Assembly (NCBI GenBank): GCA_026770705.1
Contig: JANJGN010000004.1
Location: 141,794,001-141,858,000, forward strand
Direction of reading: 5' to 3'
DNA length: 64,000 nucleotides
Origin: Isurus oxyrinchus
Taxonomy: Eukaryota
Shown: positions 1,802 to 59,599 of the stretch, piece after piece
How the letters are laid out: each line of letters starts with the position of its first letter
Position numbering within the stretch: the first letter of the stretch is position 1
Made by a program: the position numbers and the translations under genes
Notes under the pieces: model-generated
Told to the model about the DNA's origin: nothing
Seen by the model: only the letters and a program-made list of their open reading frames with translations
The model's database searches: none

Positions 1802-2365
1802 GGACAAGATTTTCGGGTCGTCAGGTGGCCACGTTAGGCGGGCCCGAGAGCGGCCAGGAGATGGGCCAATGCCCGCGATCAGTCCCCAACCACGATTCCA
1901 CACTGGCTGGCCAATTAATGGCAAACCAGCGTGAAATGGGCACTGAAAGGTTCAATGCTGCCGGGTTGGCAGCAGGAGGAGAGCGAGCGCTGAAGTCTCC
2001 CCGGGTGTGGGGGAGTGCACAATGAAAGCTCCCTGAATGCAGAGAACTGCCTCAGGGAGCTAAAGAATTTAAAATGAAGGAATAAGGACGTAAAAATCCA
2101 GGAAAAATGTCCACACATCAGACTCACTCACCTAAGCATACAGATAGTAAAAATTCTGCCCAAACATTGATTTTTAATTGATATCAGAAACCTCATCCCA
2201 CCATTGGATGAGGTTTCCTCAAAAACCTGAAGGACATCTGGCCAACTTGCCTGCCCGCCAGTCATAATGTTAGACGGGCAGCAAAAAATCACAGCTAATT
2301 GATACTTTAATGGTCTTAATTGCCAACTCTCACGTGCACCCATCAACCGAAATATCACACGATAT
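1802..2365 (-). mobile_element. PIF/Harbinger-type MITE, partial copy
   Basis: TIR-like GGACAAGATTTT at 1802; shares internal hairpins (AGCTCCCTGA/TCAGGGAGCT at 2027-2061, GAAACCTCATCC/GGATGAGGTTTC) with the TSD-bounded copies at 13050, 47913 and 50124; right end unclear. Confidence 0.55.
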
Positions 2366-19899: not shown

Positions 19900-22045
19900 T
19901 GCGTTTGTGTTGGGTGTTGCTGTGGATGGGAGGTATGGGGGTTGGAGGAGTGGGTGGGTGGGCATTGACAGGGTTGCAGCGGGGTGGGCATTCTCAAGGG
20001 TGTTGGGAGCTTGAGCATTGTCGGCAGGCAGATTGAGGGGGTGGGCATTGTTGAGGGTGTGTGGGCAGATGAGAATTTTTGGGGATGCAGAGTCTGCTCC
20101 GCCATTCAATCATGGCTGATAAGTTTCTCAACCCCATTCTCCCACCTTCTCCACGTAACCTTTGATCCCCTTACCAATCAAGAACCTATCTATCTCGGTC
20201 TTACATATCGTCAATGACCTGGCCTCCACAGCCTTCTGTGGCAATGAATTCCATAGATTCACCGCTCTCTGGCTAAAGAAGTTTCTCCTCATCTCTGTTC
20301 TAAAAGGTCTTCCCTTTACTCTGAGGCTGTGCCCTCGGGTCCTAGTCTCTCCTACTAATGGAAACTTCTTCCCCATGTCCACTCTATCCAGGCCTTTCAG
20401 TATTCTGTAAGTTTCAATTAGATCCCCCCCCCCCTCATCCTTTTAAACTCCATCGAGTATAGACCCAGAGCCCTCAAACGTTCCTCATATGTTAAGCCTT
20501 TCATTCCTGGGATCATTCTCGTGAACCTCCTCTGGAACCTCTACAGGGCCAGCACATCCTTCCTGAGATACGGGGCCCAAAATTGCTCACAATATTCTAA
20601 ATGTGGTCTGACCAGAGCTTTATAAAGCCTCAGCAGCACATCCCTGCTTTTATATTCTAGAACTCTCGAAATAAATGCCAACATTGCATTTGCCTTCCTA
20701 ACTACCGACTCAACCTGCAAGTTAACCTTAAGAGAATCCTGGACTAGGACTCCCAAGTCTCTTTGCACTCCAGATTTCTGAATTCTCTCCCCATTTAGAA
20801 AATAGTCTATGCCTCTATTCTTCCTACCAAAGTGCATGACCTCACACTTCACCACGTTGTAGTCCATCTGCCACTTCTTTGCCCATTCTTCTAACCTGTC
20901 CAAATCCTTCTGCAGCCTCCCTGCCTCCTCAATACTACCTGTCCCTCCACCTATCTTTGTATCATCTGCAAACTTAGCCAGAATGCCCTCAGTTCCTTCA
21001 TCTAGATCATTAATGTATAAAGTGAAAAGTTGTGGTCCCAACACTGACCCCTGCGGAACTCCACTAGTCACCAGCCGCCATCCTGAGAAGGACCCCCTTA
21101 TCCCCACTCTCTGCCTCCTGCCAGACAGCCAATTTTCTATCTATTCTAGTACCTTGCCTCTGACACCATGGGCTCTTATCTTACTGAGCAGCCACCTTGT
21201 CAAAGGCCTTCTGGAAGTCCAAGTAGATAACATCCATTGGCTCTCCTTTGTCTAATCTACTCGTTACCTCCTCAAGAATTCTAACAGATTTGTCAGGCAT
21301 GACCTCCCCTTGATGAAACTATATTGACTTTGCCCTATTTTACAATGCACTTCCAAGTATTCTGAAATCTCATCCTTAATAATGGACTCTAAAATCTTAT
21401 CAATGACCGAGGTCAGACTAATCGGCCTGTAATTTTCCATCTTTTGCCTCACTCCCTTCTTAAACAGCAGTGGGGGGGGGTACATTAGCGATTTTCTAGT
21501 CCTCTGGGACCCTCCCTGACTCCAGTGATTCCTGAAAGATCACCACGAATGCCTCCACTATGTCTTCAGCTATCTCCTTGTTGATTATTGTTGTGGGTGC
21601 AGGGGCAGTTGATTATTGCCAGGGTATCAGGGAGTTGAGCTTGTCAGGGGTGCTGTAGTGGGGGGGGGGGTGTGGGGTGAACATTGTTAGGGTATAGGGG
21701 TGAACATTGCTATTGGTTCAGTGGGGTGAACATCATTGGCAGGGGGTTTGAGGGAGTAGGCATTGTCGGGGGGCAGCAGTGGACTTTGATGGGGTTAAGG
21801 GAGGTTGAACATTGTTGACAGTGCAGGAGGTGAACATTGCTGGGAGGAGGATTGAGGACGTGGGCATTGCAAGGGGTGCAGTAAGGGTGAGCATTGTTGG
21901 CAGGGGGTTGAGGGGGTGGGCATTCTTGAGGTTGCATGGATTAAGGTTGAGGGAACGTGGGTCTTGTCTGGGATGCGGGGAGTGCTTAGTATTGCTGGAG
22001 GTGTGGAGGTGATGCATTGTTGGGGGAATGGGGCGGGACATGTTT
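19900..22045 (+). repeat. Degenerate G-rich minisatellite (core GGGGTGRRCATTG), interrupted by a CR1
   Basis: Core recurs about every 23-30 nt in 19950-20070 and 21670-22025. Confidence 0.6.
20090..21578 (-). mobile_element. CR1 LINE ORF2 (RT) fragment, relatively young
   Basis: NYRPISLTSV, GRSCLTNLLEF, SGVPQGSVLGP, KFADDTK, LVRPHLEYC and RRNFFSQR motifs. Confidence 0.92.
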
Positions 22046-27643: not shown

Positions 27644-29722
27644 TCACGACCTAAAGTTGTTGAATTCAATATTCAGTCTGGAAGGCTGTAAAGTGCCTAG
27701 TCGGAAGATGAGGTGCTGTTCCTCCAGTTTGCGTTGGGCTTCACTGGAACAATGCAGTAAGCCAAGGACAGACATGTGGGCAAGAGAGCAGGGTGAAGTG
27801 TTAAAATGGCAAGCAACAGGGAGGTTTGGGTCATTCTTGCGGACAGACCGCAGGTGTTCTGCATAGCGGTCGCCCAGTTTACGTTTGGTCTCTCCAATGT
27901 AGAGGAGACCACATTGGGAGCAACGAATGCAGTAGACTAAGTTGGGGGAAATGCAAGTGAAATGCTGCTTCACTTGAAAGGAGTGTTTGGGTCCTTGGAC
28001 GGTGAGGAGCGAGGAAGTGAAGGGGCAGGTATTGCATCTTTTGCGTGGGCATGGGGTGGTGCCATAGGAGGGGGTTGAGGAGTAGGGGGTGATGGAGGAG
28101 TGGACCAGGGTGTCCCGGAGGGAGCAATCCCGGGGGGGTGAAGGGAAGATGTGTTTGGTGATGGCATCACGCTGGAGTTGGCGGAAATGGCGGAGGATGA
28201 TCCTTTGAATGCGGAGGCTGGTGGGGTGATAAGTGAGGACAAGGGGGTCCCTATCATGTTTCTGGGAGGGAGGAGAAGGCGTGAGGGCGGATGCGCGGGA
28301 GATGGGCCGGACACGGTTGAGGGCCCTGTCAACGACCGTGGGTGCAAAACCTCGGTTAAGGAAGAAGGAGGATATGTCAGAGGAACTGTTTTTGAAGGTA
28401 GCATCATTGGAACAGATGCAACGCAGGCGAAGGAACTGAGAGAATGGGATGGAGTCCTTACAGGAAGCGGGGTGTGAGGAGCTGTAGTCGAGATAGCTGT
28501 GGGAGTCGGTGGGTTTGTAATGGATATTGGTGGACAGTCTATCACCAGAGATTGAGACAGAGAGGTCAAGGAAGGGAAGGGAAGTGTCAGAGATGGACCA
28601 CGTGAAAATGATGGAGGGGTGGAGATTGGAAGCAAAATTAATAAATTTTTCCAAGTCCCGACGAGAGCATGAAGCGGCACCGAAGTAATCATTGATGTAC
28701 CGGAGAAAGAGTTGTGGAAGGGGGTCGGAGTAGGACTGGAACAAGGAATGTTCCACATACCCCATAAAGAGACAGGCATAGCTGGGGCCCATGCGGGTAC
28801 CCATAGCCACACCTTTTATTTGGAGGAAGTGAGAGGAGTTGAAGGAGAAATTGTTCAGCGTGAGAACAAGTTCAGCCAGACGGAGGAGAGTAGTGGTGGA
28901 TGCGGATTGTTCGGGCCTCTGTTCGAGGAAGAAGCTAAGGGCCCTCAGACCATCCTGGTGGGGGATGGAGGTGTAGAGGGATTGGTCGTCCATGGTGAAG
29001 AGGAAGCGGTTGGAGCCAGGGAACTGGAAATTGCTGATGTGACGTAAGGTGTCAGAGGAATCACGGATGTAGGTGGGAAGGGACTGGACAAGGGGAGAGA
29101 GAAGGGAGTCAAGATAATGAGAAATGAGTTCTGTGGGGCAGGAGCAAGCTGACACGATCGGTCTACCGGGGCAGTTCTGTTTATGGATTTTGGGTAGGAG
29201 GTAGAAGCGGGCCGTCCGAGGTTGGGCGACTATCAGGTTGGAAGCTGTGGGAGGGAGATCCCCAGAGGAGATGAGGTCAGTGACAGTCCTGGAAACAATG
29301 GCTTGATGTTCAGTGGTGGGGTCATGGTCCAGGGAGAGGTAGGAGGAAGTGTCTGCGAGTTGACGCTCAGCCTCCGCGAGGTAGATGTCAGTGCGCCAGA
29401 CAACAACAGCACCACCCTTGTCAGCAGGTTTGATGACAATGTCAGGGTTGGACCTGAGAGAATGGAGTGCAGTAAGTTCAGAGAGAGACAGGTTAGAATG
29501 AGTGAGAGGAGCAGAGAAATTGAGACGACTAATGTCGTGCCGACAGTTCTCAATGAAAAGATCAAGAGAAGGTAAGAATCCAGAGGGAGGGGTCCAGGTG
29601 GAGGGAGAATATTGGAGATGGGTAAAAGGATCCGTTGAACTGGGAGAGGACTCCTGCCCAAAGAAGTGAGCCTGAAGACGAAGACGGCGGAAGAAGAGTT
29701 CAGCGTCATGCCGAGCCCGAAA
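27644..29722 (-). pseudogene. Penelope-like reverse transcriptase / GIY-YIG endonuclease (692-codon open frame, disabled)
   Basis: By my reading the frame is open 189 codons upstream of the listed 503-aa ORF: KPADKGGAVVV, PKIHK..PGRPIV, MDDQSLYTSI, GVAMGTRMGP, RYIND (YIDD expected), CPRKRCNTC, LVYCIRCSQCGLLYIGETKR; frameshift near 29722 separates the LSKGLSF segment. Confidence 0.88.
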
Positions 29723-32700
29723 CTAAGTCCTTTGCTGAGCACTGAACATTCAGCATCGGAGAGGGGAAGGTCAGGGGGTATAGTGAACACACGGCTGGGG
29801 TTGGGATTGGAAGATGGGGTGGGGACGGAGGGACAGGCCGGGGTGGAGGGGCCTAGATGTGTGTTGGTGTCGATGAGTTGTTGGAGCTTGCGTTCCTTAG
29901 CACTTGAGAGAAAGAGAAAAAGTTTCTTGTTGAGGCGTTGGATGAGCCGGAGGATAAAATGAAACTGGGGGCACGTGTCAGCTGCCCACTTAGATTAGGC
30001 ATGCAGCAGGATTTGCTGCCAAGGCCATGTCAAGGGTATCTTATGAATGGAAAGTGGGTAAGGAACAGCTTAGCAGGCTAAAACTTTTCTTGTGGGGCCC
30101 CTAGGAGCAGACTGAAGTTCTACCCGTTGTACTACTTATTTATATACTAATGAGCTTACCCTGAGAATTTCAACGGGGTCAGCGGAGCATGACATGGTTG
30201 GTCACGAGCATCACCCCTCAGTAATTCTGACATCTACCTGGACCTCAAAGATATTTGGGGCTATAACCTCCACTCTCATCTTCACCACTGCCTCTTTTAA
30301 AAGCACAAACCATTTCACTGAGGATATCATTGTCTCAGGTAAATTCATTGTCTGATTTCCCAAATCTGCCATCAGGAATCCATTGTTTTGCTGTCCTTGG
30401 GTAATTAATTATTTTAATTCTGCAGGTGGACCTCATTGGCCACAAAGAATGAATATTTACAAGGGATCTTTAGTGTCGGCCTTGCTTTTCAAAATTACTC
30501 ATAAGTGAATGGCCCAGCATTTTATTATCACTGGCAAATGTTTGATAGCCCTGTGGTAACTTTTTGATAATCTATTACTGAGGGAAAGGAATTTGAGGTT
30601 TTCATATCCAGTGATAGCTGGCAATAAATAAATGTTCTTCATGCACCACTCCTGTCTAGATTTCGAGCTGAATCCAGTTTAGTGACTCACAAAATTGTCA
30701 TGTTTTTAAAAGGTTCATAACAATATTGATATGCTATTCAGAATAGGTACTAAAACAACTGCAGAAGAAATAAATCAGGTATCATGAAACTTATGATAGC
30801 AAGAAAGTGACTAGGTTTGAAGACTGAAATAATTGAAATAAGCCAAAACAGTTGACAATTAAAAGCTTGTACCCTCAGAGTTGTGAAAAAAATGTAACAA
30901 TTTATGTTTTAAATTGAATCGGCTTGTAATTTCTCTCTTGTCTGTTGTTTTGTGTTTTAAGTTCTTCTGATGCATCAAATTATTTTGTGATATTCTGACA
31001 TATTTTCATGGATTTTGGCACCATGAGGAGTTGCTCCAGAATAAAGTGATAATGCAGTATCAATGTCGTGTTCTGGATGATCTCTAGGTATTAGCACTTT
31101 AAAAGTAATCTGGCAGTGTACTAAACTTAAAATCCTATTTGTGTCTTAGGGCCAATCAGATAAAACCAACAGTGTTAAATTGTCTATATCTATGGTTTTC
31201 AATTTCTTAATCTGATATTATAGAAAATTTGCCCATGTTTACACCTGTCATTTCCAAATGCTAAACTCCCAAGATCATTGTCAATTATTGATTGACAATA
31301 TACTCTGCGGGGTGAAGGCAGCAAGGGGGCATGGGCACCTTGCTATGAACAAACAAGAAGAGAAAACAAATAATTGTTTATTTTAGTCCATTGATGTTTC
31401 TACTGGCAACCGATTCGGAGTAAGTTGCCTGGCCACTCTTTCTAGAGGAGATTGCTGCATCGTACAGGGTAAGCTTAGTAAGCAATTTACAAGGTAGGCC
31501 ACACAACAAAAATATAACTTTGTTGAAATAATCTGCAATAATATGAACATAATTGAAAGTCCGAGCCAAGATTAAAGAATAGAGTGTAGATCAGAGGGTT
31601 ATATCCGAGAGAATATTAACTCAACTGAGATCTAGTTTGCTGCTTCGAGTGGAAGCTGATGATTCTCCTGCTTGAATATTTTATTCCTTCAAGTGATGCA
31701 GTATACTCGTAAGTGGCATATACCTGTCAACCATTAAACATTTTCCCTTCAACAATTTTTCAGAGGTGAGCAAGAGAAAGGTTCCACAAGTTCAAGAGGG
31801 CCATGAGATACAAGCTTCCCTGTCCAAGAATTCCAAATACAGCAGTGCTATCACAGTGTGTTTACAATGTAATTTCACTTTACAAGGTTTTGCAATATCC
31901 TTCTTAAGTTTTCTTTTAAATTTATAATGATGAAATAGTATAGTTCTGAAATATTTAATTTTGTTATTTCATATTATTTTGATGAATTAACACAAGAATT
32001 ATAATCTTAACTGAACACAATGGGGAAAAATTCATTCACGTAGCACCACTACTCACAGAGCCACATGGATTTACATTGGAGTAGACAATGTTATGGGCCA
32101 CCACCTTTTCCGTGTTCTCCATTAAATTTCTCCCCCAATACTATGTGGTTTCTTACAATTAAACACAATTGGTTCTTGTGGTATGTTCTAATGGGGGTAC
32201 ACTAGCATAATGGTTATGTAACTGGACCAGTAAACCAGTAACTTGAATTATTGATCCAGAGACATGGTTCAAAAACCATTGTGGAGAATTTAAATTCAGT
32301 TAAGTTTTTAAAAATTGTATAGTAGGCTAGTAGCAGCAATGGTAGCCATGAAACTACTGGATTATCGTAAAAAAAAACACCTGGTTCACTCATGCCCTTT
32401 ACGGAAGGAAATCCGCCATCATCATCTCTTTTTGTCACTCGAGACCCACATCAGTATGCTTGACACTTAACTGCCCTGTGAATGGCCCAGAAAGCCACAA
32501 AGTTGCATCAAACTGCTACAGAAAGGTCAACTAAGAATAAAACCAGGTGGGCCACATGGCATCAACCTAAGCACCAGATACAACAAAGCCCAACCTAGCC
32601 AACATTTCAAAGGCCCCCTCATGAACATCTGGGGACATGTGCAAAAATTGAGTGAGAGAGCTGTCGCACAGACTAGTCAAACAATAGCCTGATATAGTCA

Positions 32701-34249
32701 TACTCACCAAATCATACATTCACCCATGGCTCCAGACTCCTCCATTGCCATCCCGTTACCAGAGATGGCAGCACATTGGTTTACAGTTAGGAGGTAATGG
32801 CCCTGGGTGGTTCAACATTGACTTCATAAATTCTCATGACATCTTATCAAATATGGCTAAGGAAAGCCCCTGTACTGTGACTGTAAACCAATGTGTTGCC
32901 ACCTCGGGTAATGGGATGGCAATGGAGGAGCCTGAAGCCATGGATGAAAGGTATGATTTGGTGAATATGACTATATCAGGCTATTATTTGATTAGTCTGT
33001 GTGACAGCTCTCTCAATTTTTGCACAAGCCCCCAGGGGGCCTTTGAAATGTTGGCTGGGTTGGGCTTTGTTATATCTGGTGCTTAGGTTGATGCCATGTG
33101 ATCCATCTGGTTTTATTCTTAGTTGGCTGATTACCACTTATCATCCTCCTTCAGCTGATGAATCAGTGCTCCGCCATGTTGACCACCACTTGGAAGGGCA
33201 CAGAATGTACTCTGGATGTAGTACTTCAATGTCAGCAGCATCATTCCTGACCGAGCTGGCCAAGTATTGAGGATGTAGCTGCCAGATTGGTTTGCGGCAG
33301 GTGGTGAGAGAAGCAACATGAGGGAAAAGCTGACTTGACGTCATCCTCACCAATCTACCTCTCACGGATGCATCTGTCCATGACATTATTGGTAGAACTA
33401 CCACACAGTGATTGTGGAGCTGAGGCCCTACCTTCACACTGAGGTCACCCTCCATAATGTTGTGTGACACTACCGCCATGCTAAATGGGATAGATTCAGA
33501 ACAGATCTAGCAGCTCAAAGGTAGGCATCCAGGCACTGTGGGCCATCAGCAGCAGCAGAATTGTGTTCAACCACTATCTGCAGCTTTACAAAAATGTACA
33601 TGTCTCTCTCTATCATTACCCTAAAGCTGGGGGTCTAAGCCTGGTTTGATGAGGAGCGTGGGAGAGCATCCAGGAGCAGCACCAGATATACCTGAAAATT
33701 CGATGCCAATTTGATGAAGGTACAACACAGGACCACATGCATGCTAAACAGTGAGTGCAGCATTTAATATACAGGGTTAAGCAATCCCACAACCAAAACA
33801 TCAAATCAAAGCTCTGCATTCCTGCCACATCAAGTGGAGAAGCATGGTGCACAATTAAACAACTAACCAGAAGAGGAAGCTCAATAAAAAATCTCTATCC
33901 TCAATGATAACAGGGCCCAGCATGTGAGTGCAAGAGACAAGGCTGAGGCATTGGCAATAACCTGAGCTGGAACTGCCAAGTGGATGATCCATCTCAGCCT
34001 CCTCCTGAGATTCCTGCCATCACAGAAGCCAGTCATCAACCAATTTGATTCACTACACGTGATATCAAGAATTAGCTGAGCACCCTGGATACAGCAAACT
34101 TGATGGGCTCTGAAAACATCCCAGCTAAAGTACTGAAGACTTGAGCTCTGGAACTAGCTCACTTCTAACCAAGCCTACAAAACTGGCATCTAGCCGATAA
34201 TATGGAAAATTGCATAGTTTTGTCCTGTCTGCAAGAGCGGGATAAATCC

Positions 34250-36637
34250 TAAAGGACATAGCTGCTAAATAGCTGCCCTAAAGGACATCGCTGCTAGGCT
34301 GGGCCTACAGCAGGTGGACAGGGAACCAACAAGAGGGAAAAACATGCTTGACCTCATCCTCACAAGCCTGCCTGCCACAGATGCATCCATCTATGACAGT
34401 ATCAGTAGGAGTGAATTCCGCACAGTCATTGTGGAGACAAAGTCCCGCCTTCGCATTGAAGATACCTTCCATTGTGTTGTGTGGCACTACCACCATGCTA
34501 AATGGGTTAGATTTTGAACAGATCTAGCAACTCAAGACTGGGCATCCATGAGGCACTGTGCGCCATCAGCAGCAGCAGAGCTGTACTCAAACACAATTAG
34601 TAACCTCAGGATCCAGCATATGCCCCATTCTACCATTACCATTTCGCCAGGGGATCAACCCTTTTTCAATGATGAGTCCAGGAGGGCATGCCAGGAGTAG
34701 CACCAGGCATACCTAAAAATAAGGTGTCAACCTGGTGAAGCTATAACATAGGACTACTTGTGTGCCAAGCAGAATAAGCAGCAAGTGATAGACAGAGCTA
34801 AGCAATCCCACAACCAACGGATCAGATCTAAGCTCTGCAGTCCTGCCACACCCAGTCGTGAATAGTGGTGGATAATTAAGCACCTTGCTGGAGGACGAGG
34901 CTCCACAAATATCCCCATCCTCACTGATGGGGGGAGCCCAGCGCACCAGTATAAAAGATAAAGCTGAAGCAGTTGCTACAATCTTCTGCCAGAAGTGCTA
35001 AGTCAATGATCCATCTTGGCCTCCTCCGGAGGTCCCCTGATGCCAGTCTTCAGCCAATTCAATTCACTCCAACAGCTGAAGTCACTGGATACTGCAAAGG
35101 CTATAGGCCCCGAAAATATTCCAAAAATAGTACAGAAGACATGTGCTCCATAACTTACCATGCCCCTAGCCAAGCTGTTCCAGTACAGCTACAACACTGG
35201 CATCTACCCGGCTATGTGTAAAATTGCCCAGGTATGTCATATACATAAAAAGCAAGCCAACTCCAACCTGGCCAATCACTGCCCCATCAGTCTACTCTCG
35301 ATTATCAGTAAACTAATAGAATGGGTCATCAACAGTGCTACCAAGTGGCACTTGCTTAGCAATAACATGCTCATTGACTCCCAGTTTGGGTTCCACCAGG
35401 GCCACTCAGCTCCTGACTTCATTACAGCCTTAGTTCAAACATGAACAAAAGAGCTGAACTTCTGAGGTGAAGTGAGAATGACTGCCCTTGACATCAGAGC
35501 CGCATTTGACCAAGTGTGACATCCAGGAGCCGTAGCAAAACTGGAGCCAATGAGAATCAGGGGGAAAACTGTCCACTGGTTGGAGTTATACCTAGCACAA
35601 AGGAAGATGGTTGTGGTTGTTGGAGGTCAGTCACCTCAGCTCCACGGCATCACTGCAGGAGGGTAGCGTCCTAAGCCCAACCATCTTCAGCTGCTTCATC
35701 AATGACCTTCCTTCCATCATAAGGTCAGAATTGGGGATGTTCGCTGATGATTGCACAATGTTCAGCACCATTCACAACTCCTCAGATACTGAAGCAGTCC
35801 ATGTCCAAATGCAGTAAGACCTGGACAATATCCAGGCTTGGGCTGATAAGTGGCAAATAACATTCACGCTACACAAGTGTCAGGCAATGACCATTTCCAA
35901 CAAGAGAGAATCTAAGCATCGCCCCTTGACATTTAATGGCAGGCATTACCATCACTGAATCCCACACTATCAACATTCTGGGCATTATCATTGACCAGAA
36001 ACTGAACTGGATTAGCCATATAAATACTGTGGCTACAAGACCAGGTCAGAGGGTAGGAATCCTGTGATGAGTAACACACTTCCTGACTCCCCAAAGCCTA
36101 TCCACCATCTACAAGGCACAATTCAGAACTGTGATAGAATACTCCCCACTTCCCTGGATGAGCACAGTTCCAACAACACTCAAGAAGCTTGACACCATCC
36201 AGGAAAAAGAAGCTCACGTGATTGGCACCTCATCCAGAAACATTCACTCCCTCCACCACCGATGTACAATAGCAGCCGTGTGTACCATTTAAAGATGCAC
36301 TGCAGGAATTCACCGAGGCTCCTTAGACAGCACCTTCCAAACTCACAAACACTGCCATCTTGAAGAACAAGGGCAGCAGATAGATGGGAACACTGCCATC
36401 ACCAAGAAGTTCCCCTCCAAGCCACTCACCATTCTGACTTGGAAATGTATTGTCGTTCCTTCACTGTCGCTGTGTCTCCCTCCTTAACGGCATTGTGGGT
36501 GTACCTACAGCACACGGACTGCAGCGATTCAAGAAGGCAGCTCACCACCACCTTCTCAAGGGCAACTAGGGATGGGCAACAAATGCTGTCCCAGCCAGCG
36601 AAGCCCATATCCCATGAATGAGTAAAAATAAATAACT
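34250..36637 (+). mobile_element. Younger 5'-truncated copy (B) of the same LINE family inserted into copy A
   Basis: REPTRGKNMLDLILT, KIAQVCHIHKK, FGFHQGHS and FINDLPS...MFADDCT motifs; complete tail; AATCC repeated at both junctions. Confidence 0.88.
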
Positions 36638-37465
36638 AATCCAATCCAGTTAATTACCACCCCATCAGTCCACTTTCAATTATCAGTGAAGTGATGGAAG
36701 GGGTCATCAACAGTGCAATCAAAAGGCGCTTACTTACTAATAACCTGCTCAACTATCCAGAGCTTGGATTCTGCCATGACCACTCAGCTCCAGACCTCAT
36801 TACAGTCTTAGTCAAAACAGCATTAAAGGGCTGAATTTAAGAGGTGAAGTGAGTATGATTGTCCTTGACATCAAGGTAGCATTTGACAAAGTGTGACATT
36901 AAGGAACCCTAGCGAAATTGAAGTCATGGGAATCAAGAGAAACTGTCCATTCCTGAACCTTACCTAACACAAAGTAAGATGGTTGTGGTTGAAGGCCAAT
37001 CATCTCGACACCAGAACATGTTGTAGGAGTTCTTCCAAGTAGTGTCCTAGGTCCAACCATCTTCAACTGCTTCATCAATGATCTTTCCATCATAAAGTCA
37101 GAAGTGGAGATTTTTGCTGATGGTTGCAGAGTGTTCAGTACCATTCATGACTCTCCACATACGGAAGCAGTCTGGGCCCCCATGCAACAAGACCTGGACA
37201 ACGTTCAAGCTTGGACTGATAAGTAGCAAGTGACTTTTGCACCACACAAGTTCTAGGCAATGAACATATCCAATAAGAGAGAATCTAATCATCTCATCTT
37301 GACATTCAATGGTATTACCATTACTGAATCCCCCACTATCACATCCTTGGGGGGACCAGAAATTTTACTGGACCAGCCATATAAATATTGTGGCTACAAG
37401 AGCAGATCAGAAGTTGAAAATACTGCAGGAAGTGATTCATCTCCTAAATCTCTAAAGCCTGTCCA

Positions 37466-37614
37466 TAAGATCATAAGACATAGGAGCAGAAATTAGGCCA
37501 TTCGGCCCATCGAGTCTGCTCTGCCATTCAATCATGGCTGATAAGTTTCTCAACCCCATTTTCCTGTCTTCTCCCCGTAACCTTTGATCCCCTTACCAAT
37601 CAAGAACCTATCTA
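37466..37614 (-). mobile_element. Short CR1 3'-end insertion
   Basis: CATAAGA tail repeats; body nearly identical to 20090-20193; TSD CCTGTCCA at 37458-37465 and 37615-37622. Confidence 0.85.
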
Positions 37615-39073
37615 CCTGTCCACTGTCTATAAGGCACAAGTTAAGATTGTGATGGAATACGCTCCACTTACTTTGATGAATGCAGCTCCAACAACACTCA
37701 AGAAACTCGACACCATCCAGCACAAAGCAGCCTGCTTCATTTACAGCCCTAACCACCACCTCCCACCACCAGCACATTGTGGTTGCAGAAACTCAACAAA
37801 GCTTCTTACAGCACCTCCCAAACCACAACCTCTATTGCCTAGATAGACAAGAATAGCAGGTACATCGAAACACCAACACTTACTATTCCCATCCAAGTCA
37901 TGCACCATCTTAATTTGGTACTATATCCCCGCCCATTCATCATAACTGGGTCAAAATCCTGGCACTCCCTACCTAAAAGCACTGTGAGTGTACCTTAGCC
38001 ACATGGACAGCAGCTCATCACCGCCTTCTCAAGGACAATTAATGACGTGCAGTAAATGTTGACTTACATCCCATGAACGAATACAAAAAATCCCTCTCTA
38101 TAGAATATATACAAGTCATTCTATCATAATGAACAGTTAGTTTTAGCACTTGAGATGAGTGACCCTTGTCTCGTAGATCAACAAAGGCCATTATTAATCT
38201 GGTGCTGAGACTTCAGTTTGTTTACCAATACGTTTTGGAAAGAATGATTGAACAGGCCTGATCTCCCTTAATCTCTGAGTTGAGTCATTTGCTTGACACT
38301 TAACCAGATGATATCCTCAGAAAAATCTAGTGACTGTAATTTCTTTATTACATAAAACGATGCACTTGGAAATGAATAATAAAGACAGGTTCAGTTTGAC
38401 TTGCACAGTGAGATGTGTTATGATAGACTGAACCATGCTTACCAGTTCAAACAGGGGACTGGAAAGTCCAATGTGTCAGGGAATGGAGTTGACAGGGTGT
38501 CGCCAGAAAAGACACATGGCCTGGGATTCATAATTGCCCACCATGTCAAAAACAGAAGTAGGTGTGCTTTGAAAATAATACTCCCGGATTGTGTGTTAGT
38601 GTTCTGACACCTCCAGGACATGCTGGAATTTTCAAAGCGAGGACAGAGTACAGGGAAGTTAGGAATCCACTCACCTCCAATTGACGGCCTTATAAGCTCC
38701 TTGAAGAGCCTGTGAATAGGCCTGGGAGGGCCAGAAAGCGATTTTTAATTTGTAAACTGTCAAACCTGAACAGTCTTGGTGCACTTTAGTGCACAGCTAT
38801 TGGGTTCAATGTGGGGAAAATTTAAGTGATTCTTTTTGCAATGAGAAATTTTTGGAACTAGGGAATTTTGCAGCGGATCAGCACAGCACTTTCCATTTTG
38901 CTGTTTCGCCACTTTTGTGCTTGGGGAGGCTGCTGGTCCTGTGATGTGCTTCTTCCTCTCTTCTGCAAGGCCTCATTTTGGCTGCTGTCTGCCTTTGCTG
39001 CTTGTGCTCTGCTGGCATTCCCATTAATTGGGTGCCAAGCTCACCTTTGACCCAGTTAGGGCACTTACATTTG

Positions 39074-40419: not shown

Positions 40420-42460
40420 CAAACATAAGAACATAAGAAAAGGAGCAATAATAGGCCATTTAGACCTTTAAGTCTTCTTGCCATTTAATAAAATCATGGC
40501 TGAATTTCAATCTCAATTCCACTTTTCCACTCGATCTCCATTTCCTTTGATTCCCTTACAGCCCAAATGTCCATCAATCTCTGCCTTGAATATACACAAT
40601 GACTGAGCAACCACAGCTCTTTGGGGAAGAGAATTTCAAAGATTTACAATGCCTTGAGCGAATAAATTTTTCCTCATCTCAGTTCTAAGTGGTTCCCTCT
40701 TTCTTGTAGCTAAATGCCCACAAGTTCTAGACTTTCCAGCCAGGAGAAACAGCCTGCCAGCAGCTACCCTGTCAAGCCCTCTCAGAATCTTATATGTTTC
40801 AATGAGATTACCTTTCATTCTTCTAAAATCCAGAGAGCAGGGGTCCATTTTACATGATTCCAGATCCACAGCAATGTGGTTGACTCTTAACTGCCCTCTG
40901 AAATGGCCAAGCAAGCTGCTGAGTTCAAGTGCAATTAGGGATGGGCAGCAAATGCTGGCTTTAATCCACATCCCACATGAAGGAATAAAAAAGTTGCAGT
41001 AAGACTTCTTATACTCCAACCCTGTTGCAGTAAAAGCCAAAAGACATTTATGCCTTCATAATTGTTTGCTGTGCCTGCATGTTAACTTCATTGTTCCATG
41101 TACAAGAGCACACAAATCCCTCTGAACATCGGCATGTAATAGGTTACCTCCATTTAAAATACTCTGTATTTCAACGGAGAAGTGCAGCTGAAGAAGAGTG
41201 AAGTGCAGATCAGGTGAAATGCCTTCCAAGCATTTAGCCATCACCCGTCATGCGGTGATAACACTCTCACCTGGCCATGGCTGAAGATCATAACTGACGA
41301 AAACATTCCCAGCTTGTTAGTTCACCTAAGGAAGTCTCTCCCACTGTACATTTGCCTTCTCCAGCTTGCTGGGTTTGAGATACAGCATGCAATTGCTCTG
41401 CTGTTGGGATATAGGAAATACATGAAGGAAGTCCCTCTATGGTCTCTATGTTTTAAATGCCTTCAGTTGGCTTCCCATTTCAGCTGTGGAGGGTTCTCAA
41501 TTTCATCCAACAACTTGTCCCAGGAAAGACAGAAGGAAACAAGAATTTAATGTGTTGGAAAGTGGCCTAGTAACATTTTCTGCAATTTCCCAGCACCACC
41601 CCCAAACCCACCTTCACTGGCTTGGGAAAATTCTCCCCATTGTGTCCTGTTCATAGTTTACTTTTCCACCTACCTTTGAATTGTCAGCAAATTTGGATGC
41701 ATTCCACTTGGTCCTTTCATCTAAGTCATTAATGCAGAATATAAATAACTGAGGTCCTGAAACTGATCCTTGCTGTAGGCCACTGCCAATATTCTGCTAA
41801 CTTGAAAATGACTTTTATTCCTATTCTGTTTCCTGTCCTTTAGCCAAACCTGTATCCATAGTATTATTTTATCTCCAAACACATGAGCCCTTACCTTGTG
41901 CAAAACCTTTTGTTTAGCACTTTATTGAACGCCTTTTGCATCCAAGTATACTACATCCAATGATTTACCTTTCTCTACTCTGCTATTTACATCCTCAAAA
42001 CTCTTAATAGATTTGTCAAACAGGATTTCTCTCTCACAAACCATGTTGGTCGTGCCCAATCCTATTATGATTTTCTAAGTGCCATGTTACAACTTTCTTA
42101 ATAATGGTCTCCACCATTTTCCTGATGACTGATGCTAGGTTAACTGGCCTTGTGTTCTGTCTCCCAATTTTCTAGAATAGTAGAATTACATTTGCTAACT
42201 TCTAATCCACTGGGACCATTCCAAAATCTTGGAAATTTTGGAAGAATACAAGCAGTTCATGCACTATCTCTGCAGCCACCTCTTCTAGAGCCCTGAGGTG
42301 TGAAGTATTGGGTCCAGGGACATTGTCAGCTTTTAATCCCATTAGCTGCTTTTCTCTTACTAATATTAATTACCATAAGTTCCTCACCCTGATGATATCT
42401 ATGGTTTCCCATTATTTCTGGTACATTTTTTGTGTCTTTTACCGTGAACACAGACACAAA
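40420..42460 (-). mobile_element. Old CR1 LINE, fragmented by SINE and MITE insertions
   Basis: AACATAAGAACATAAG tail at about 40422; GNLIETYKILRGLDRV and KFADNSK-like remnants. Confidence 0.75.
40850..40995 (+). mobile_element. 5'-truncated SINE related to the tRNA-headed LINE
   Basis: LINE 5' leader ...GAAATGGCCAAGCAAGCTGCTGAGTT joined directly to the LINE tail CAAGTGCAATTAGGGATGGGC. Confidence 0.7.
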
Positions 42461-43790: not shown

Positions 43791-44697
43791 TTATTTATTT
43801 TAATTAATTAATATAATAATTTAATTAATTATATTTTATGTATATGATCAGCATAGCTTTTACTTTTTGTTAACCAATTACTTGATCCAATTTAAGTTGT
43901 AGGGAAACTAATTTAAATGCTTGCCTATAACACAAATACAATGTTACAGAGGTGAGTTGATGTAAAATATTAACTTTCAATTTCATCCGCTAGACTCACA
44001 TATGGAATTTTTAAAAAAAGGCAGTTTCATCTGTTAAAATAAAGACACTGACCTAAGATGGCTGCCACAGTTCATCTGACATTTGGGACTGAAAGTTGGC
44101 CAAGCTTCTGAAGTGGATTACAATGAACATATAGACTACCTACTTATGGGATGGTGTACCAGCCCTTGTCAGGACTTATCCCAAAACAACAAAGACAATA
44201 AGGCCTCAGAATTTCTGTCTCCAGGATGATCAGGTAACAAAGGGGAACTCACAAAACTGACTACACACAAGTGAAGTGCTAAAAAACACTATCTGCCTCT
44301 ATTGTATGGCAATGGTTTTGACCGTGGGAGTCAAAGTATTTTATTGCAAAACCCTGCTGGCTTTGAGGCAGTCCAGAGAAGGGACATCTGAAGGCAGCAA
44401 AAAGTTGTTTGCCTCTCTCTCTCACTCTTTCAACTGAACTGGGCCCTGCATGCATATATTATACAGTGGATAGCAGACAGAGAAATTCTAAAGATGACTT
44501 CAGATTCCAAAGCATCATTTCCTGGGAAAAAAAAAACAAGGGCTGTCACTTTAAGAACTGCTTCAGCCATGAACTCATAAACAATGAAATCTGTATATCT
44601 TTGCCTTCTAATGTTAAATCTTAATTTGGCCAAAAGTTAACCTCCTCTACTTTGTAACTTGCATTTTTGCATGTGTGTGGATGAGTGTGTACATTTT

Positions 44698-47600
44698 TAA
44701 TTCATTCACGGGATGTGGGCTTCACTGGTGGGGCCAGCATTTATTGCCCATTCCTAGTTGTCGTTGAGAAGGTGGTGGTGAGCTGCCTTCTTAAACCAGT
44801 GCAGTCCCTATGTGGTGTTGGTACAGCCACAGAGCTGTCAGGAAGGGATTGTCAAGGGCAGTCACTCTCACCTCCAGGATTTTGACTCAACGATGAGTGA
44901 AGGAAAGTGAAGGAACGGTGATATAGTTCAAAGTCAGGTTGGTGAATGACTTGGAGGGGAACAACTAGGTGGTGGTGTTCCCATCTATCTGCTGCCCTTA
45001 TTCTTCTAGATAGTAGTGGTTGTGAGTTTGGAAGGTGCTGTCTACGGAGCCTTGGTGAATTCCTGCAGTGCATCTTGCAGATGGTACACACTATTGCTAC
45101 TGTGCGTCGGTGGTTGGGGGAGTGAATGTTTGTGGATGTGGTGCCAATCAAATGGGCTGCTTTGTCTTGGACAGTGTCAAGCTTCTTGAATGCTGTGGGA
45201 GCTGCACTCATCCACAGGAGTGGCGGGGGTTTCTATCACATTCCTAACTTGTGTTTTGTAGATGGTGGTGAGGCTTTGGGAAGTCAGGAGGTGAGTTAAT
45301 TGTTGCAGGAATCCTAGCCTCTGACCTGCTCTTGTAACCACGGTATTTATATGGCTAGTCCATTTCAGTTTCTGGTCAATGATAACCCCCAGGATGTTGA
45401 TGGTGGTGGATTCAGTGATGGTAATGCCATTGAACTACAAGGGACAATGGTTGGATTCTCTGTGTTGGAGATAACTATTGCCGGACACTTGTGTGTCACG
45501 AATGTTACTTGCCACTTGTCATCCAAGCCTGGATATTGTCCAAGTCTTGTTGCATTTGGACATGGACTGCTTCAGTATCTGAGGAGTCGTGAATATGTGG
45601 AACATTGTGCAATCATCTGCGAATATCCCCACTTCTGACCTTATGATGGAAGGAAGGTCATTGATGAAGCAGCTGAAGATGGTTGGGCCGAGGACACTAC
45701 CCTGAGGAACTCCTGCAGTGATGTCCTGGAGCTGAGATGACTGATATCCAACAACCACAGGCAGCTTCCTTTGTGCTAGTTATGACTCTGATTTCCATTG
45801 ACTCCAGTTTTGCTAGGGCTTCTTGATGACACACTCTGTCAAATGCTACCTTGGTGTCAAGGGCAGTCACTCTCACCTAACCTCGGGCGTTCAGCTCTTT
45901 TGTCCATGTTTGAACCAAGGCTGTAATGAAGTCAGAAGCTGAGTGGCCCTGGCGGAACCCAAACTGGGTGCCAGTGAGCAGGTTATCACTAAGCAAGTGC
46001 TAGCACTGTTGATGACTCCTTCCATTACTCTACTGATGATCGAGAGCAGACTGATGGAGCAGTAATTGGCTGGGTTGGATTTTTCATGCTTTTTGTGTAC
46101 CAGACATACCTGGAAAACTTTCCACATGGCCAGGTAGATGCTACTATTAAAGCTGTACTCGAACAGCTTGGCTAGGGGTATGGCAATTCTGGAGCACAAG
46201 TCTTCAGTCCTATTGCCGGAATATTGTCAGGGCCCATTACCCTTTGCAGTATCCAGTGCCTTCAGCTGTTTCTTGATATCATGTGGAGTGAATTGAATTG
46301 GCTGAAGACTGGAACTTGTGATGCTGGGGACATCCAGAGGAAGCCGAGATGGATCATCCACTCGGCACTTCTGACTGAAGATTGTAACAAATGCTTCAAC
46401 CTTATCTTTTGCACTGATGTGCTGGGCTCCTCCATCATTGAGGATGGGGATATTTGTGGAGCCTCCTCCCCCTCCAGTGAGTTGTTTAATTGTCCACCAA
46501 CATTCACGACTGGATGTGGCAGGACTGCAGAGCTTAGATCTGATCCGTTGGTTGTGGGATCGCTTAGCCCTGTCTATCACTTGCTGCTTATGCTGTTTGG
46601 CATGCAAGTAGCCCTGCTTTATAGCTTCACCAGGTTGACACTTCATCTTTAGGTATGCTTGGCACTTCTCCTGGTATGCCCTTCTACACTCTCCATTAAA
46701 CCAGTGTTGATCCCTTGGCTTCATGGTAATAGTAGAGTGGGGATATGCGGGGCTACGAGGTTGCAGATTGTGTGCGAGTACAATTCTGCTGCTGCTGATG
46801 GCCCATAGTGCCTCATAGATGCCCAGTCTTGAGTTGCTAGATCTGTTTGAAACCTATCCCATTTAGCGCAATCGTAGTGCATACAACATGATGGGGGATA
46901 TACTCAATGTGAACACAGGACTTCGCCTCCACTATGACTGTGCGGTGATTATTCCTACCAACACTGTCATGGCCAGATGCATCTATGGCAGGTAGGTTGG
47001 TGAGGATGAGGTCAAGTATGTTTTTCCCCCTTGTTGGTTCTTTCACCGCCTGCCACAGACCCAGTCTAGCAGCTATGTCCTTTAGGATTCGACCAGCTCA
47101 GTCAGTAGTGATGCTACTGAGCCACTCTTGGTGATGGACATTGAAGTCCTCCACCCAGAGTATATTCTACGCCCTTGCCACATTCAGTGCTTCCTCCAAG
47201 TGGCGTTCAACATGGAGGAATACTGATTCATCATCTAAGGGAGGGTGGTATGTGATAATCAGCAGGAGGTTTCCTTGGCCATGTTTGACCTGATGCCATG
47301 AGACTTAATGGGGTCTGGAGTCAATATTGAAGACTCTCTCCTGACCGTATATCAGTTTGCCTGTCCTCCTGGTGGAAAAGGACACTTCAGGGGTGATTCA
47401 TGAATCGGGAGTGCACTCTTTCACGCATGCATGCGAAAGAGCGCAGAAATGGAAAAGGACATACCCAGGGATGGTGATGCTGGTGCCTGGGATATTATCT
47501 ATAAGGTATGATTTCGTGAGGATGACTATGTCAGACTTTTGCTTGACTAGCCTGTGAGAAAGCTCTCCCGATTTTGGCACTAGCTCCCAAATGTTAGTAA

Positions 47601-48629
47601 GGAGAACTTTGCAGGGTCCACAAGGCTGAGATTGCCATTGTTGTTTACGGTACCTCTGTTGATGCCGGGAGTTCCATCTGGTTTCATTCATTTTTTGTGA
47701 CTTTGTTGAGGTTTGTTACAACTGAGTGGCTTGCTAGGCCATTTCAGGGGGCATTTAAGAATCAACCACATTTGCTGTGGGTCTGGAGTCACATGTAAGC
47801 CAGACCAGGTAAGGACGACAGATTTCCTTCCCTGAAGGACATTAGTGAACCAGATGGCTTTTAATAACAATCGACAATTCTTCCACGGTCATCATTATTC
47901 TATTAATTCCAGAGGGAGAATTTTCGGCTTGGAGAATGGGGGTGGGGCCCACTCGCTGAGCTGTAAAATAATGCGGGGTGACGTCAGGCATGCAGTGGCG
48001 CGTCATTTAGATTTTCAGTTCGGTGGGCGAGCACCGGAGTCGGCTGTGCGCCCACCGAACTGTCAAAGGCCTGTTAAGGCCATTAATTAACTAATTAACC
48101 CTATTGAGAATGCTACCGATTCAACCATAAGGTTGGCGGGCAGGCGAAGAGCCCAGGCGGCCTTCACATTTTTCATGGACCCTCATCCGCGGGTGGGAGG
48201 GGCTTTCATGAATGTTTTTGAAATCTTGGAAACATTTTTAATAAAATTAATACACATGCCCCAGCTCATGCGACAGTTTCACATGAGGGGACATGGTCTA
48301 AAGATTTTTTTCTCCTTTATTAAACTTTAGAAACTTTAAACTAATCTCTCTGAGGCACTTCTGTGCCTCAGGGAGGTTTCTGCGCTTTTTCACATGCATG
48401 CATGAAAGACCGCACTCCCGATTCAGGGATCACCTCTCCCACCCGCACAGGGAGTGCTCAGCGCTGGGCAGGCTGGGGGCACCAATCGGGACCACTCCCG
48501 CCCTCACCCACCCTGGCACAACCAACCCCCCCCAACCCCCCTCTCCCACCGACAGGGGGAAAATTCTACCCCAGCATTTTATTGAAGTCAAATTCCACCA
48601 TCTGCCGTGGCAGGATTCGAACCAGGGTC
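44698..48629 (-). mobile_element. Near full-length copy (C) of the tRNA-headed APE-RT LINE; 5' end runs into the gap
   Basis: B-box GGTTCGAATCC at 48623-48613; leader; CKVLLTNIWELVPK...DIVILTKSYL APE start; EPTRGKNILDLILTN; GVPQGSVLGP...IFADDCT; tail at 44698-44790. Confidence 0.9.
47913..48571 (+). mobile_element. PIF/Harbinger-type MITE inserted in the LINE C leader
   Basis: AGGGAGAATTTT / AAAATTCTACCC; TSD CAG; removing it restores the leader seen at 58590-58620. Confidence 0.8.
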
Positions 48630-50123: not shown

Positions 50124-50823
50124 GGCTGCAATATTCTGGTCAGCAGGCGGGGGCGGGCCCCATCCGCCGACACATAAAATGACACGTGGTGACGTTGAGC
50201 GTGTGTCCCGACGTCACTGCGTATTATTTCGATCTTCATTTTGGCGGGCGCGCACCGGAATTGGCTGCGCGCCTGCCGAACTGTCAAAGGCCTGTTGAGG
50301 CCATTAATAATCTAACTGAGCTAATTGTCAGGGCTGTCTGTCCAACCTTAAGGTTGGCGGGCAGGCGAAGAGCCCAGGCGGCCTTCGCATTTTTCATAGA
50401 ACCTCATCCACGGACGGGTTGAGGTTTCATGCAGGGTTTATAAATTCAATAAAATGTTTCAACAAAATTTATAAACACGTCCCAGCTCATGTGACAATGT
50501 CACATGAGAGGACATGTCTGAATAATTTTATTTATTCTTTCTCCCAATATTTGAGAATGAAATTAATCTCCCTGTCCGTGCTCAGGGAGATTTCTGCGCT
50601 CTTTCGCGCACTTGTGCAAAGGAGCGCAGGCCCAGACTCTCTCTCCTCCCCCCGCCTGCACAGATAGCGTGGAGCACTTCCGGGTGCGCATCACACTGGG
50701 CAGGCCTTAATTGGCCCACCCATGTAAAATGGCGGTCTGCAACCAATCGCCAGTGGCAATCGGCGGCACCCCCGCCCGCACCTGCTCCCGCCCAGCCTGC
50801 CCAATGGGAAAAAAATTCTCCCC
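50124..50823 (+). mobile_element. PIF/Harbinger-type MITE
   Basis: Degenerate left TIR, right TIR AAAATTCTCCCC, TSD TAT; collinear with 47913-48571. Confidence 0.78.
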
Positions 50824-57729: not shown

Positions 57730-58039
57730 GGTTAAAAAGGTAGATGACAATCAGTAAAGTGTCTCTCAAAATACTTGTTCAGGCATATGAGTTAAAATAA
57801 AACAGAATGCATAGAAAGTTAATTGATCAACAGGATATAGAGATAAGGTAGATGTGAGTTGCTCAGAACTGAGGGTGAGAAAAGGCAGGAATCAGTGCTA
57901 GATATAGTTTTGTCTTTGGAACATATTGATGATTTGCATTTGGGTGATGGGGAACAAAACCTTGTCATTTGTTTATGATGCAAAAGTAGCAGGCCATAGC
58001 AAACAGTGAAGAAGAGTGTAAAGCCTTCAGGAAGGTATA

Positions 58040-59599
58040 GGGCAGAATCGTCCCAGATTTGCACTAAGTGCAGTAACCGTCGGGTAAAACAGCTGCAACG
58101 GTGGATTTTCATCCCGTATCATCCCAAACCCACAGCATTACTTATGCATTCCCGGGAAACATGCCATTTTAATGGCAGGCAGGGTCTCCTTCACTCACCA
58201 CGCCATCACCTCGCCACTTCATCACACTGGACGCCATATTTAAAGTCAAGCTGTGCGCACACATCTCAGTTCTTCCATCCCACGACTACTGCAGGGAAGA
58301 TGTCCATGAAAGGCAAAAAGACTGGAACCCTCAGGTTTAGTGACACATCACTGGAATACCATTTGGAGGCCGTGGAGGCCTGCCATGATGTCCCCTATGC
58401 CTGCTCTGGCCACAGGATGGGCAGCAGTGTGACCAACCAGGCTTGGGAGGTGGTGGCAGTGGTGATCAGTGCCAGTGCTGTACAGAAGAGGAGGTGGTGG
58501 CATAGTGGTATTGTCACTAGACTAGTATTCCAGAGGCCCAGGGTAATTCTCTGGGGACCCAGGTTCAAATCCCATTGTGACAGATGACGAAATTTGAATC
58601 CAATAAAAATCTGGAATAAAGTCTGATGGTGACCATGAAACCATTGCTGATTGTTACAAAATCCCATCTGGTTCACTAATACTCTTTGGTCTGGCCTACA
58701 TGTGACTCCAGGCCCACAGCAAATGTGGTTGACTCTTAAAATGCTCCCTGAACAAGGGTAATTAGGGGTGGGCAATGAAAGCCAGTGACACCCACATCCC
58801 ACAGAAAAATAAAAGAGGGTTGGCCATCCAAGATAGAGGATGAATGATCTCATCTGTGCAGCCAGGGTATGGCAACCATCTTATCATTCTAAACTCACAC
58901 ACTCAAGCCCATCATACTCACTGTCAGCTCAAGGGACATCACCACCCATTCTCTCACATTTCTATTTGGCCTCATCTCCTCTGGGGCTTGCTTCCTCAGC
59001 CCCCACCATTTTGAGGCAACTTGCACAGATCAACATGTGCCCCCACACACACCCTGGGTTACCCTCCTTCCCCAGTACAGACCTTGGTCTGCAGTCTGTT
59101 TTCTCCCCCTTCACCAAGCAAGCCCTAGACATGCAACCATTGAAAATCAACCCACATATGGCTGACCTGGTAGATAGAGACCTGCCCATGAACCCCATTA
59201 AAAGTGATGTGGTGCTGGCTGTGAAGCCTAGTGCTTGTGACTGTGAGCGCTGACTGAAGCAATGTAGGCAAACAAACCTTGAAGTCCTGAGTGAAGTGCA
59301 GCCCGCCAGGTGCACATTGCTTATGTGCTGTTGTGAAACATGTCAGTGTGTTTCCCACTGACTTTGGCAGATGATCCAGCTGGGGGGGTATCGATTCCGG
59401 TGGGCAGGCCTAATAATGATGCGCTGATGTATTACAATGAGGTTCCTGATGTCCGATGGCAGGAAACGCAGCCTGCCATTGGTGGGCTGAGTGGATGATC
59501 GTGAACTGGGTTCAGGGTGTTGTGAAACCAATCGTGCCATATTTTCTGCTCATGCCACCATACATGCCTGACGCCAGCAAGCATGGAAAATCCCAGCCA
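58040..59599 (+). mobile_element. Non-autonomous Harbinger-type element with Myb/SANT exon 1
   Basis: Ends GGGCAGAATCGTCC / GGAAAATCCCAGCC; LRFSDTSLEYHLEAV...QAWEVVAVVISASAVQKR, then a SINE, then RMNDLICAAR and a GT donor. Confidence 0.68.
58492..58812 (+). mobile_element. Full-length tRNA-derived SINE sharing head, body and tail with the APE-RT LINE
   Basis: A-box TGGCATAGTGG 58498-58508; B-box GGTTCAAATCC 58562-58572; LINE tail; TSD AAGAGG at 58486-58491 and 58813-58818. Confidence 0.85.

Follow-up and report, generated by a model that had tools for sequence, protein, structure and literature searches.

A tRNA-like SINE head at the 5′ end of a shark Zenon LINE family and its probable transcription by RNA polymerase III

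Can a protein-coding retrotransposon begin with the promoter of a non-coding one? This question is raised by a stretch of 64,000 nucleotides (nt) from Isurus oxyrinchus (assembly GCA_026770705.1, contig JANJGN010000004.1, positions 141,794,001 to 141,858,000, forward strand), referred to below as the window. At 32193..38090 the window holds a broken long interspersed element (LINE), here called copy A, which starts with a tRNA-like sequence bearing A- and B-box motifs. The divide between LINEs and short interspersed elements (SINEs) rests on coding RNA made by RNA polymerase II (Pol II) as opposed to non-coding RNA made by RNA polymerase III (Pol III); transcription by Pol III is unexpected for a protein-coding retrotransposon. 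Copy A is a decayed 3.3-kb shark Zenon LINE, and the 5′ end of its family consists of a tRNA-like head and a SINE body. We consider it moderately probable that the master copies were transcribed by Pol III from the A and B boxes. The family is abundant in the shark genome, and the Pol III-type head is a feature of the family. Its architecture comes with a sharp 5′ boundary, a reading frame under purifying selection, no TTTT on the sense strand and no early in-frame AUG.

Aligned to the family model described below, copy A comprises 32193-32872, 33126-34249, 36635-37465 and 37615-38090, that is 680 + 1,124 + 831 + 476 = 3,111 nt. With the nested inserts removed, the order is tRNA-like head, short leader, apurinic/apyrimidinic endonuclease (APE), reverse transcriptase (RT) and poly(A); the first open reading frame (ORF1) of other LINEs is absent. 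The sequence itself contains an A-box-like TAGCATAATGG at 32203-32213, an anticodon-arm-like CTGGACCAGTAAACCAG at 32222-32238, a degenerate B-box, GGTTCAAAAAC, at 32266-32276, and an APE motif (N-I-W-G) at about 32624. The pieces continue at the model positions where they were broken (723; 1908/1901; 2752/2745). The three inserts are an inverted duplication, a younger copy of the same family and a piece resembling a CR1 3′ tail, and short repeats of host-copy sequence flank the inserts at 34250-36634 and 37466-37614. A preliminary description of the window had located these head motifs correctly, and its reading of the locus as one element of about 3.1 kb split by nested insertions agrees with the junction analysis. 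Copy A is old and broken, with about 20% non-CpG divergence from the model, and its head taken on its own is too decayed to be called a tRNA.

Does the head belong to the whole family? The genome searched was the Isurus oxyrinchus assembly (4.98 Gb, 5,558 contigs), and the repeats of the window are of shark type. A first majority model was built from 39 genome loci selected by the leader of the second long copy in the window; its frame has 892 codons, with one CpG-decay stop near the end of the ORF, and the 81-copy model has 969 codons. The majority model measures 3,292 nt and consists of the head at position 1, the body, a leader, a single APE-RT frame, a short 3′ untranslated region (UTR) and poly(A). 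Matched to the box consensuses, it has an A-box at 10-20 and a B-box at 74-84, with a 5-bp stem and 7-nt loop at 29-45. Open pieces of real copies gave Pfam matches to Exo_endo_phos, Exo_endo_phos_2 and RVT_1. Only 318 nt precede the frame, which leaves no room for ORF1, as the preliminary description had noted for copy A; nothing upstream of the head is common to the copies.

A sample independent of the head was obtained by selecting 49 loci with the RT-region protein, of which one duplicate was removed. The main match of the remaining 48 copies starts at element positions 1-10 (9 copies), 11-100 (5), 101-440 (8) or beyond 440 (26). No alternative shared 5′ end was found among them, nor did their upstream flanks contain a common sequence, the mutual matches being scattered pairs only. 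Among 88 long loci, 31 match without a break from element position 10 or earlier to position 700 or later. Column identity in these 88 loci rises from 0.32-0.55 just upstream to 0.74-1.0 at the first G run and after it, CpG-type sites apart, and only two pairs have flanks that share sequence. Full copies begin a few bases before the A-box. The family model begins at the tRNA-like head and sequence sharing stops there; the copies therefore show neither an upstream ORF1 nor a junction between head and APE that varies from copy to copy, the two outcomes that the preliminary description had named as refuting its proposal. A chance neighbourhood of a SINE and a 5′-truncated LINE does occur at a few loci, where SINEs adjoin truncated copies (for example L133, L156, L163, L173). 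As an account of the family its probability is negligible: the same junction and spacing recur in dozens of copies and in seven published consensuses, and this constancy already refutes it.

The family is assigned by sequence to the elasmobranch Zenon LINEs of the CR1 group. Compared by eye over the first 400 nt, CarCar_Zenon-1 (3,288 nt) and our model are nearly identical. The nearest named proteins come from the sevengill shark (77-84% identity), amphioxus (38%) and crustaceans (31-34%). Elasmobranch Zenon LINEs are known from five species and are stated to be absent from repeat repositories (Stuart et al. 2026, PMC13343379). According to the same source, ORF1 is missing from Zenons of every phylum, their 3′ end is a poly(A) tail, and ORF1 loss is also common in L2, so that the preliminary description overstated how unusual this absence is. 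By eye, the head starts all seven elasmobranch Zenon consensuses in the supplement of that paper (five species, including a ray). It is absent from the first 400 nt of the two hagfish consensuses and the one coelacanth consensus given there, whose 5′ ends may be incomplete. The word 'tRNA' does not occur in the text and supplement of PMC13343379. The proposal of an autonomous SINE-headed LINE stands in part: the head belongs to a LINE family with a constant junction to APE and with protein-coding masters; the family and the head sequence were already in this supplement. The literature yielded no description of a tRNA-headed or Pol III-transcribed autonomous LINE, with thin coverage of subscription papers and with Repbase and Dfam outside its scope. 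What is already known is the family and its ORF1 loss, while the SINE head on an autonomous LINE appears to be unremarked in print. The purifying selection on the frame, the T-run avoidance and the missing AUG of shark Zenon are new.

Some loci of the family carry arrays derived from the element. In L136 (30-875) and L138 (209-1115) a unit of about 61 nt, taken from element 525-577, is repeated in tandem directly before the remainder of the LINE. The 3′ ends of four loci, each on a different contig (L145, L163, L166, L179), carry tandem arrays of about 56 nt from element 3119-3178; these may be a minisatellite that arose from the LINE or a subfamily whose 3′ region has been amplified.

If the head stands on a LINE, then we can ask: Has the frame behind it been kept for its protein? 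Models were made for three age classes, from 47 RT-selected young copies, 17 older copies and the 10 oldest copies. The young and old models differ at 19 synonymous and 11 non-synonymous sites, and the young and very old models at 53 and 31, with a ratio of non-synonymous to synonymous change (pN/pS) of 0.17 in both comparisons. Three single young copies set against the model gave pN/pS of 0.85-0.92, as expected from neutral decay. The value of 0.17 between age classes indicates that the propagating masters were selected for their protein. The long form, at 3.3 kb and with a frame under purifying selection, is therefore not a SINE in the sense of a short, non-coding element; only the forms of 370-390 nt are. 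The longest open piece among the fetched copies has 593 codons, and the family appears to be inactive at present.

The base composition of the frame bears on its transcription. The sense strand of a Pol III unit tolerates no run of four T or longer; LINEs are as a rule transcribed by Pol II. The sense strand of the model contains no TTTT in 3,292 nt but has 15 AAAA; a mononucleotide shuffle gives a mean of 4.5 (P=0.01), and TTTT is likewise absent from the young, old and very old models. The trinucleotide TTT occurs 6 times, with 13 expected from dinucleotides (P=0.025), and is the most depleted of all 64; for the ORF its observed/expected ratio (O/E) is 0.39. Control models from the same genome, for two CR1 families and one Penelope-like family (24, 24 and 19 loci), hold 7, 14 and 17 TTTT in 2.2-2.4 kb, with TTT O/E of 1.15, 1.21 and 1.07. 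A further comparison used 80 head-less relatives from metagenomes, 48 of them with an open frame of at least 2,400 nt. At least 8 TTTT runs are present in 47 of these 48, and their TTT O/E has a minimum of 0.73 and a median of 1.04. The T-run signal is suggestive of Pol III, not proof of it. Together, T-run avoidance, purifying selection on the frame and the lack of an early AUG point to transcription by Pol III as the likeliest reading of the family.

The 969-codon frame opens at position 319 and its first methionine is codon 285. Upstream there is a single in-frame AUG, at element 292; 72 of 82 copies retain it, but TAG comes at codon 3 in 58/82 and TAA at codon 9 in 29/82. Readthrough from this AUG is disfavoured because of the second stop; copies with the TAA scarcely differ from the rest elsewhere, and three dogfish consensuses share it. 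An AUG at 347 lies one base out of frame, with a constant offset in 57 of 70 copies, but a -1 frameshift from it is disfavoured by the ATA found there in the very old model and in copy A. An arginine-rich stretch precedes APE, and the intact relatives P0002, P0006 and P0013 also have a basic stretch at this place. The N-terminal piece had no match when searched against longer proteins. We infer that initiation was probably non-AUG and cap-independent. R2 and L1 ORF2 are precedents for unusual initiation. In a related single-ORF element, P0014, the N-terminus begins before APE with what we take to be a 2A-like peptide motif.

The same stops fit another account, in which the headed long element was itself non-autonomous: a giant SINE with Pol III RNA, served in trans by the protein of a rarer LINE that had a normal 5′ UTR and AUG. 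Besides the lack of an early in-frame AUG, it can point to the white shark, where a table in PMC13343379 gives an intact ORF2 in 0 of 2,313 family copies. We regard it as quite improbable, because age classes that differ with a pN/pS of 0.17 call for selection acting in cis on the masters that propagated, and the 48 RT-selected copies offered no second shared 5′ end.

Where did the head come from? The short SINEs of this genome, 370-390 nt in all, begin with element 1-291 or 1-314 and pass from there straight into the tail. When 29 loci were selected by the head of the short SINE in the window, 24 proved to be head and tail only. Classification of 152 tail starts placed 107 after LINE sequence, 20 after element 291, 9 after element 314 and 16 elsewhere. 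In both SINE forms the tail begins at 3216, within the final ORF codons. The names Deu, for the body, and SacSINE1, for the SINE, are putative and follow from agreement by position.

SINEs with a tRNA head, a Deu body and such a tail are recorded from dogfish, whale shark, skate, chimaera and coelacanth (PMC5499810). Two directions of exchange are conceivable. That the LINE captured the 5′ part of a SINE is the more parsimonious and, in our estimate, a fairly probable course. The opposite course, in which the headed LINE is ancestral, the Deu SINEs are its internal deletions and the Deu body is an old LINE 5′ UTR, seems rather unlikely to us. In its favour, the SINEs correspond to element 1-291 in 20 copies and 1-314 in 9, joined to a point inside the ORF, and short forms make up 24 of the 29 head-selected loci; Kojima has moreover proposed LINE 5′ UTRs as a source of SINE bodies (PMC5786205). 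In the same work, of 2018, the LINE 5′ regions found in SINE bodies came from RTE and Vingi alone, and the conserved domains had no LINE source (PMC5786205). Against it, the two SINE forms have their 3′ breakpoint in common, so that a single origin suffices. The distribution also tells against it: chimaera and coelacanth have such SINEs (PMC5499810), whereas the coelacanth and hagfish Zenons and the 80 metagenome relatives are head-less, their 5′ ends being possibly incomplete. Head and body matched none of these 80 relatives (best E-value 3.1), a weak negative, as many of the contigs are short. One metagenome contig, L187, has two SINE-like heads with A and B boxes, at about 6405 (+) and 6885 (-), downstream of a related LINE ORF.

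Several results weigh against transcription of this LINE by Pol III from a captured head. The head is not recognised as a tRNA by standard means: ARAGORN found 0 tRNAs in the 64-kb window, and a search with Rfam matched no tRNA either in copy A or in four better copies; when folded, the model head forms anticodon-like and T-like arms only. Target-site duplications spanning head to tail, which the preliminary description had looked forward to, were not found, 15 complete copies scoring 1-7 like 75 mismatched control pairs; CR1-group elements often leave none. The scarcity of T runs weakens under a stricter null, as a synonymous-site shuffle of the element's own codons expects only 2.0 TTTT runs (P=0.098, not significant), and the phenylalanine codons (4 TTT, 14 TTC) show no significant bias (Fisher p=0.21). 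One head-less relative, L245, also has no TTTT in its 2,736-nt frame, where 5.6 are expected; its contig lacks the 5′ end. Four public RNA-like runs cover the element, as contigs without strand, start or level. The stops after AUG 292 stand in the way of a simple start; a hepatitis delta virus (HDV)-like ribozyme descriptor had 0 matches in element 1-650 (shuffles 0-19), and folding of windows of head, body and leader gave z from -1.3 to +0.8, that is no special structure. Finally, the direction of capture is argued from parsimony alone.

Part of this evidence would suit Pol II transcription driven from within the Deu-like body or the leader, with the tRNA head as a passenger and the scarcity of T runs as a matter of base composition. 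Pol II is the usual polymerase of LINEs, the sense strand has only 20% T, the synonymous shuffle is not significant, and some Deu-domain copies act as enhancers (PMC4824008). However, the depletion of TTT exceeds the dinucleotide expectation, and a CR1 control of similar T content differs from shark Zenon. By eye, the shark and ray consensuses have kept motifs resembling A and B boxes amid sequence that differs, and full copies start just ahead of the A-box, as Pol III transcripts do. On balance we find Pol II transcription rather unlikely.

If Pol III transcription is accepted, the history of the element may be drawn as follows. An ancestor of sharks and rays would have joined the first 314 nt of a partner Deu-type SINE to a LINE by template switching, and this SINE 5′ part would have replaced the LINE's own 5′ UTR. 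Pol III could then read the whole element, because no oligo-T terminator lies inside it, and termination would fall in the flanking DNA, as with SINE transcripts. Translation of the uncapped RNA would begin at a non-AUG codon immediately ahead of the arginine-rich stretch that precedes APE, and the protein would use the 3′ tail shared by its own RNA and that of the SINE to copy both by target-primed reverse transcription. The full scenario is tentative, and we put it slightly short of even: an autonomous LINE that swapped its promoter for the head of its own SINE before the shark/ray split, turning into a Pol III unit with purged terminators and uncapped, AUG-less translation, the Deu body possibly acting as a ribosome entry element.

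If this holds, a major LINE of sharks and rays stands on the Pol III side and breaks the rule, and its RNA would be a natural translated Pol III transcript. The Deu body, now found ahead of an ORF, gives a handle on the role and source of a conserved SINE body, whether promoter or translation element. There is also a practical consequence: repeat annotation would split shark Zenon into a SINE and a LINE and miscount both.

Coordinates of family copies, their parts and inserts in the window (element positions refer to the 3,292-nt model)
Feature	Position	Strand	Basis
Copy A, tRNA-like head, decayed; older, dogfish-like variant	32193..32290	+	sequence; homology to family head; resembles SquAca_Zenon-1 head by eye
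Copy A, SINE-type body (putatively Deu-like) and leader, element ~139-425	32338..32611	+	model alignment
Copy A, start of APE endonuclease region, to element 723	32612..32872	+	model alignment; Pfam Exo_endo_phos on better copies
Old inverted duplication of leader/APE start, in copy A	32873..33125	-	self-match 32528-33125 at 81%
Copy A, element 723-1908: APE remainder, linker, RT start; broken	33126..34249	+	model alignment
Younger same-family copy inside copy A, 5′-truncated, element 900-3291, 89% to model	34250..36634	+	ORF stop 36567-36569
Copy A, element 1901-2752 (RT), broken	36635..37465	+	model alignment
Unrelated insert, likely CR1 3′ tail	37466..37614	-	93% to window 20090-20195, just 3′ of minus-strand CR1 RT frame
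Copy A, element 2745 through the 3′ tail, with a short poly(A)	37615..38090	+	sequence, model alignment
Longer SINE form, 3′ part: element 244-314 joined to tail	40855..40990	+	model alignment, junction classification
Second long family copy, 5′-truncated at element 122: body, leader, APE, RT, tail	44694..47913	-	model alignment
Short SINE: element 1-291 joined to tail at 3216	58490..58812	+	model alignment, junction classification

The surroundings of these copies hold other repeats. The inverted duplication within copy A (window 32528-33125) is old, about 250 nt long, and its arms are 81-86% alike. A GC-rich repeat family occupies 47998-48297 and 50219-50518 (also 13167 and 55777), and one of its copies lies where the 5′ end of the second Zenon copy is truncated. 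A Penelope-like element at 27644-29722 (-) has an open frame of 692 codons with weak RVT_1 and GIY-YIG hits; its other copies are 98-99% identical, so this family is young. The CR1-type RT piece at 20541-21140 (-) also belongs to a young family, with other copies 97-98% identical. At 58000-58587 (+) an open frame is broken by the short SINE; it looks Myb/SANT-like by eye and has no Pfam hit.

How does shark Zenon compare with systems already described? R2 elements are said to have uncapped RNA, not made by Pol II, that is translated without a normal AUG, as proposed here; they are also said to depend on co-transcription by Pol I (RNA polymerase I) and release by an HDV-like ribozyme, and no such ribozyme was found in shark Zenon. 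The published elasmobranch Zenons (CarCar_Zenon-1, RhiTyp, ScyCan, HypSab, SquAca-1/2/3; PMC13343379) are the same family, with nearly the same length, ORF1 absence and poly(A), and the passages on Zenon in that paper mention neither the head nor its link to SINEs, and neither the missing AUG nor T-run avoidance. The ORF1-less L2 clade B LINEs have a single APE-RT frame as well, but they belong to another clade, and the passages on them in PMC13343379 mention no tRNA head.

Closer parallels to the head are found among SINEs. The Deu-SINEs SacSINE1 and LmeSINE1 (PMC5499810, PMC4824008) combine a tRNA head, a Deu body and a LINE-derived tail in sharks, and the body of shark Zenon sits at the positions given for Deu in them (124-258). 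They are described as non-coding and as sharing only the tail with a LINE (L2-2_CM, CR1-4_DR-like), whereas in shark Zenon the head and body are also on a coding LINE. The bipartite derivatives of RTE, Vingi and Ingi (Bov-A/Bov-tA, SINE2-1_ACar; PMC5786205) resemble the present case in that the SINE shares both 5′ and 3′ sequence with the LINE. In those systems the tRNA head was added to the deleted derivative and the LINE is head-less and driven by Pol II (PMC5786205); in shark Zenon, by contrast, the LINE itself bears the head.

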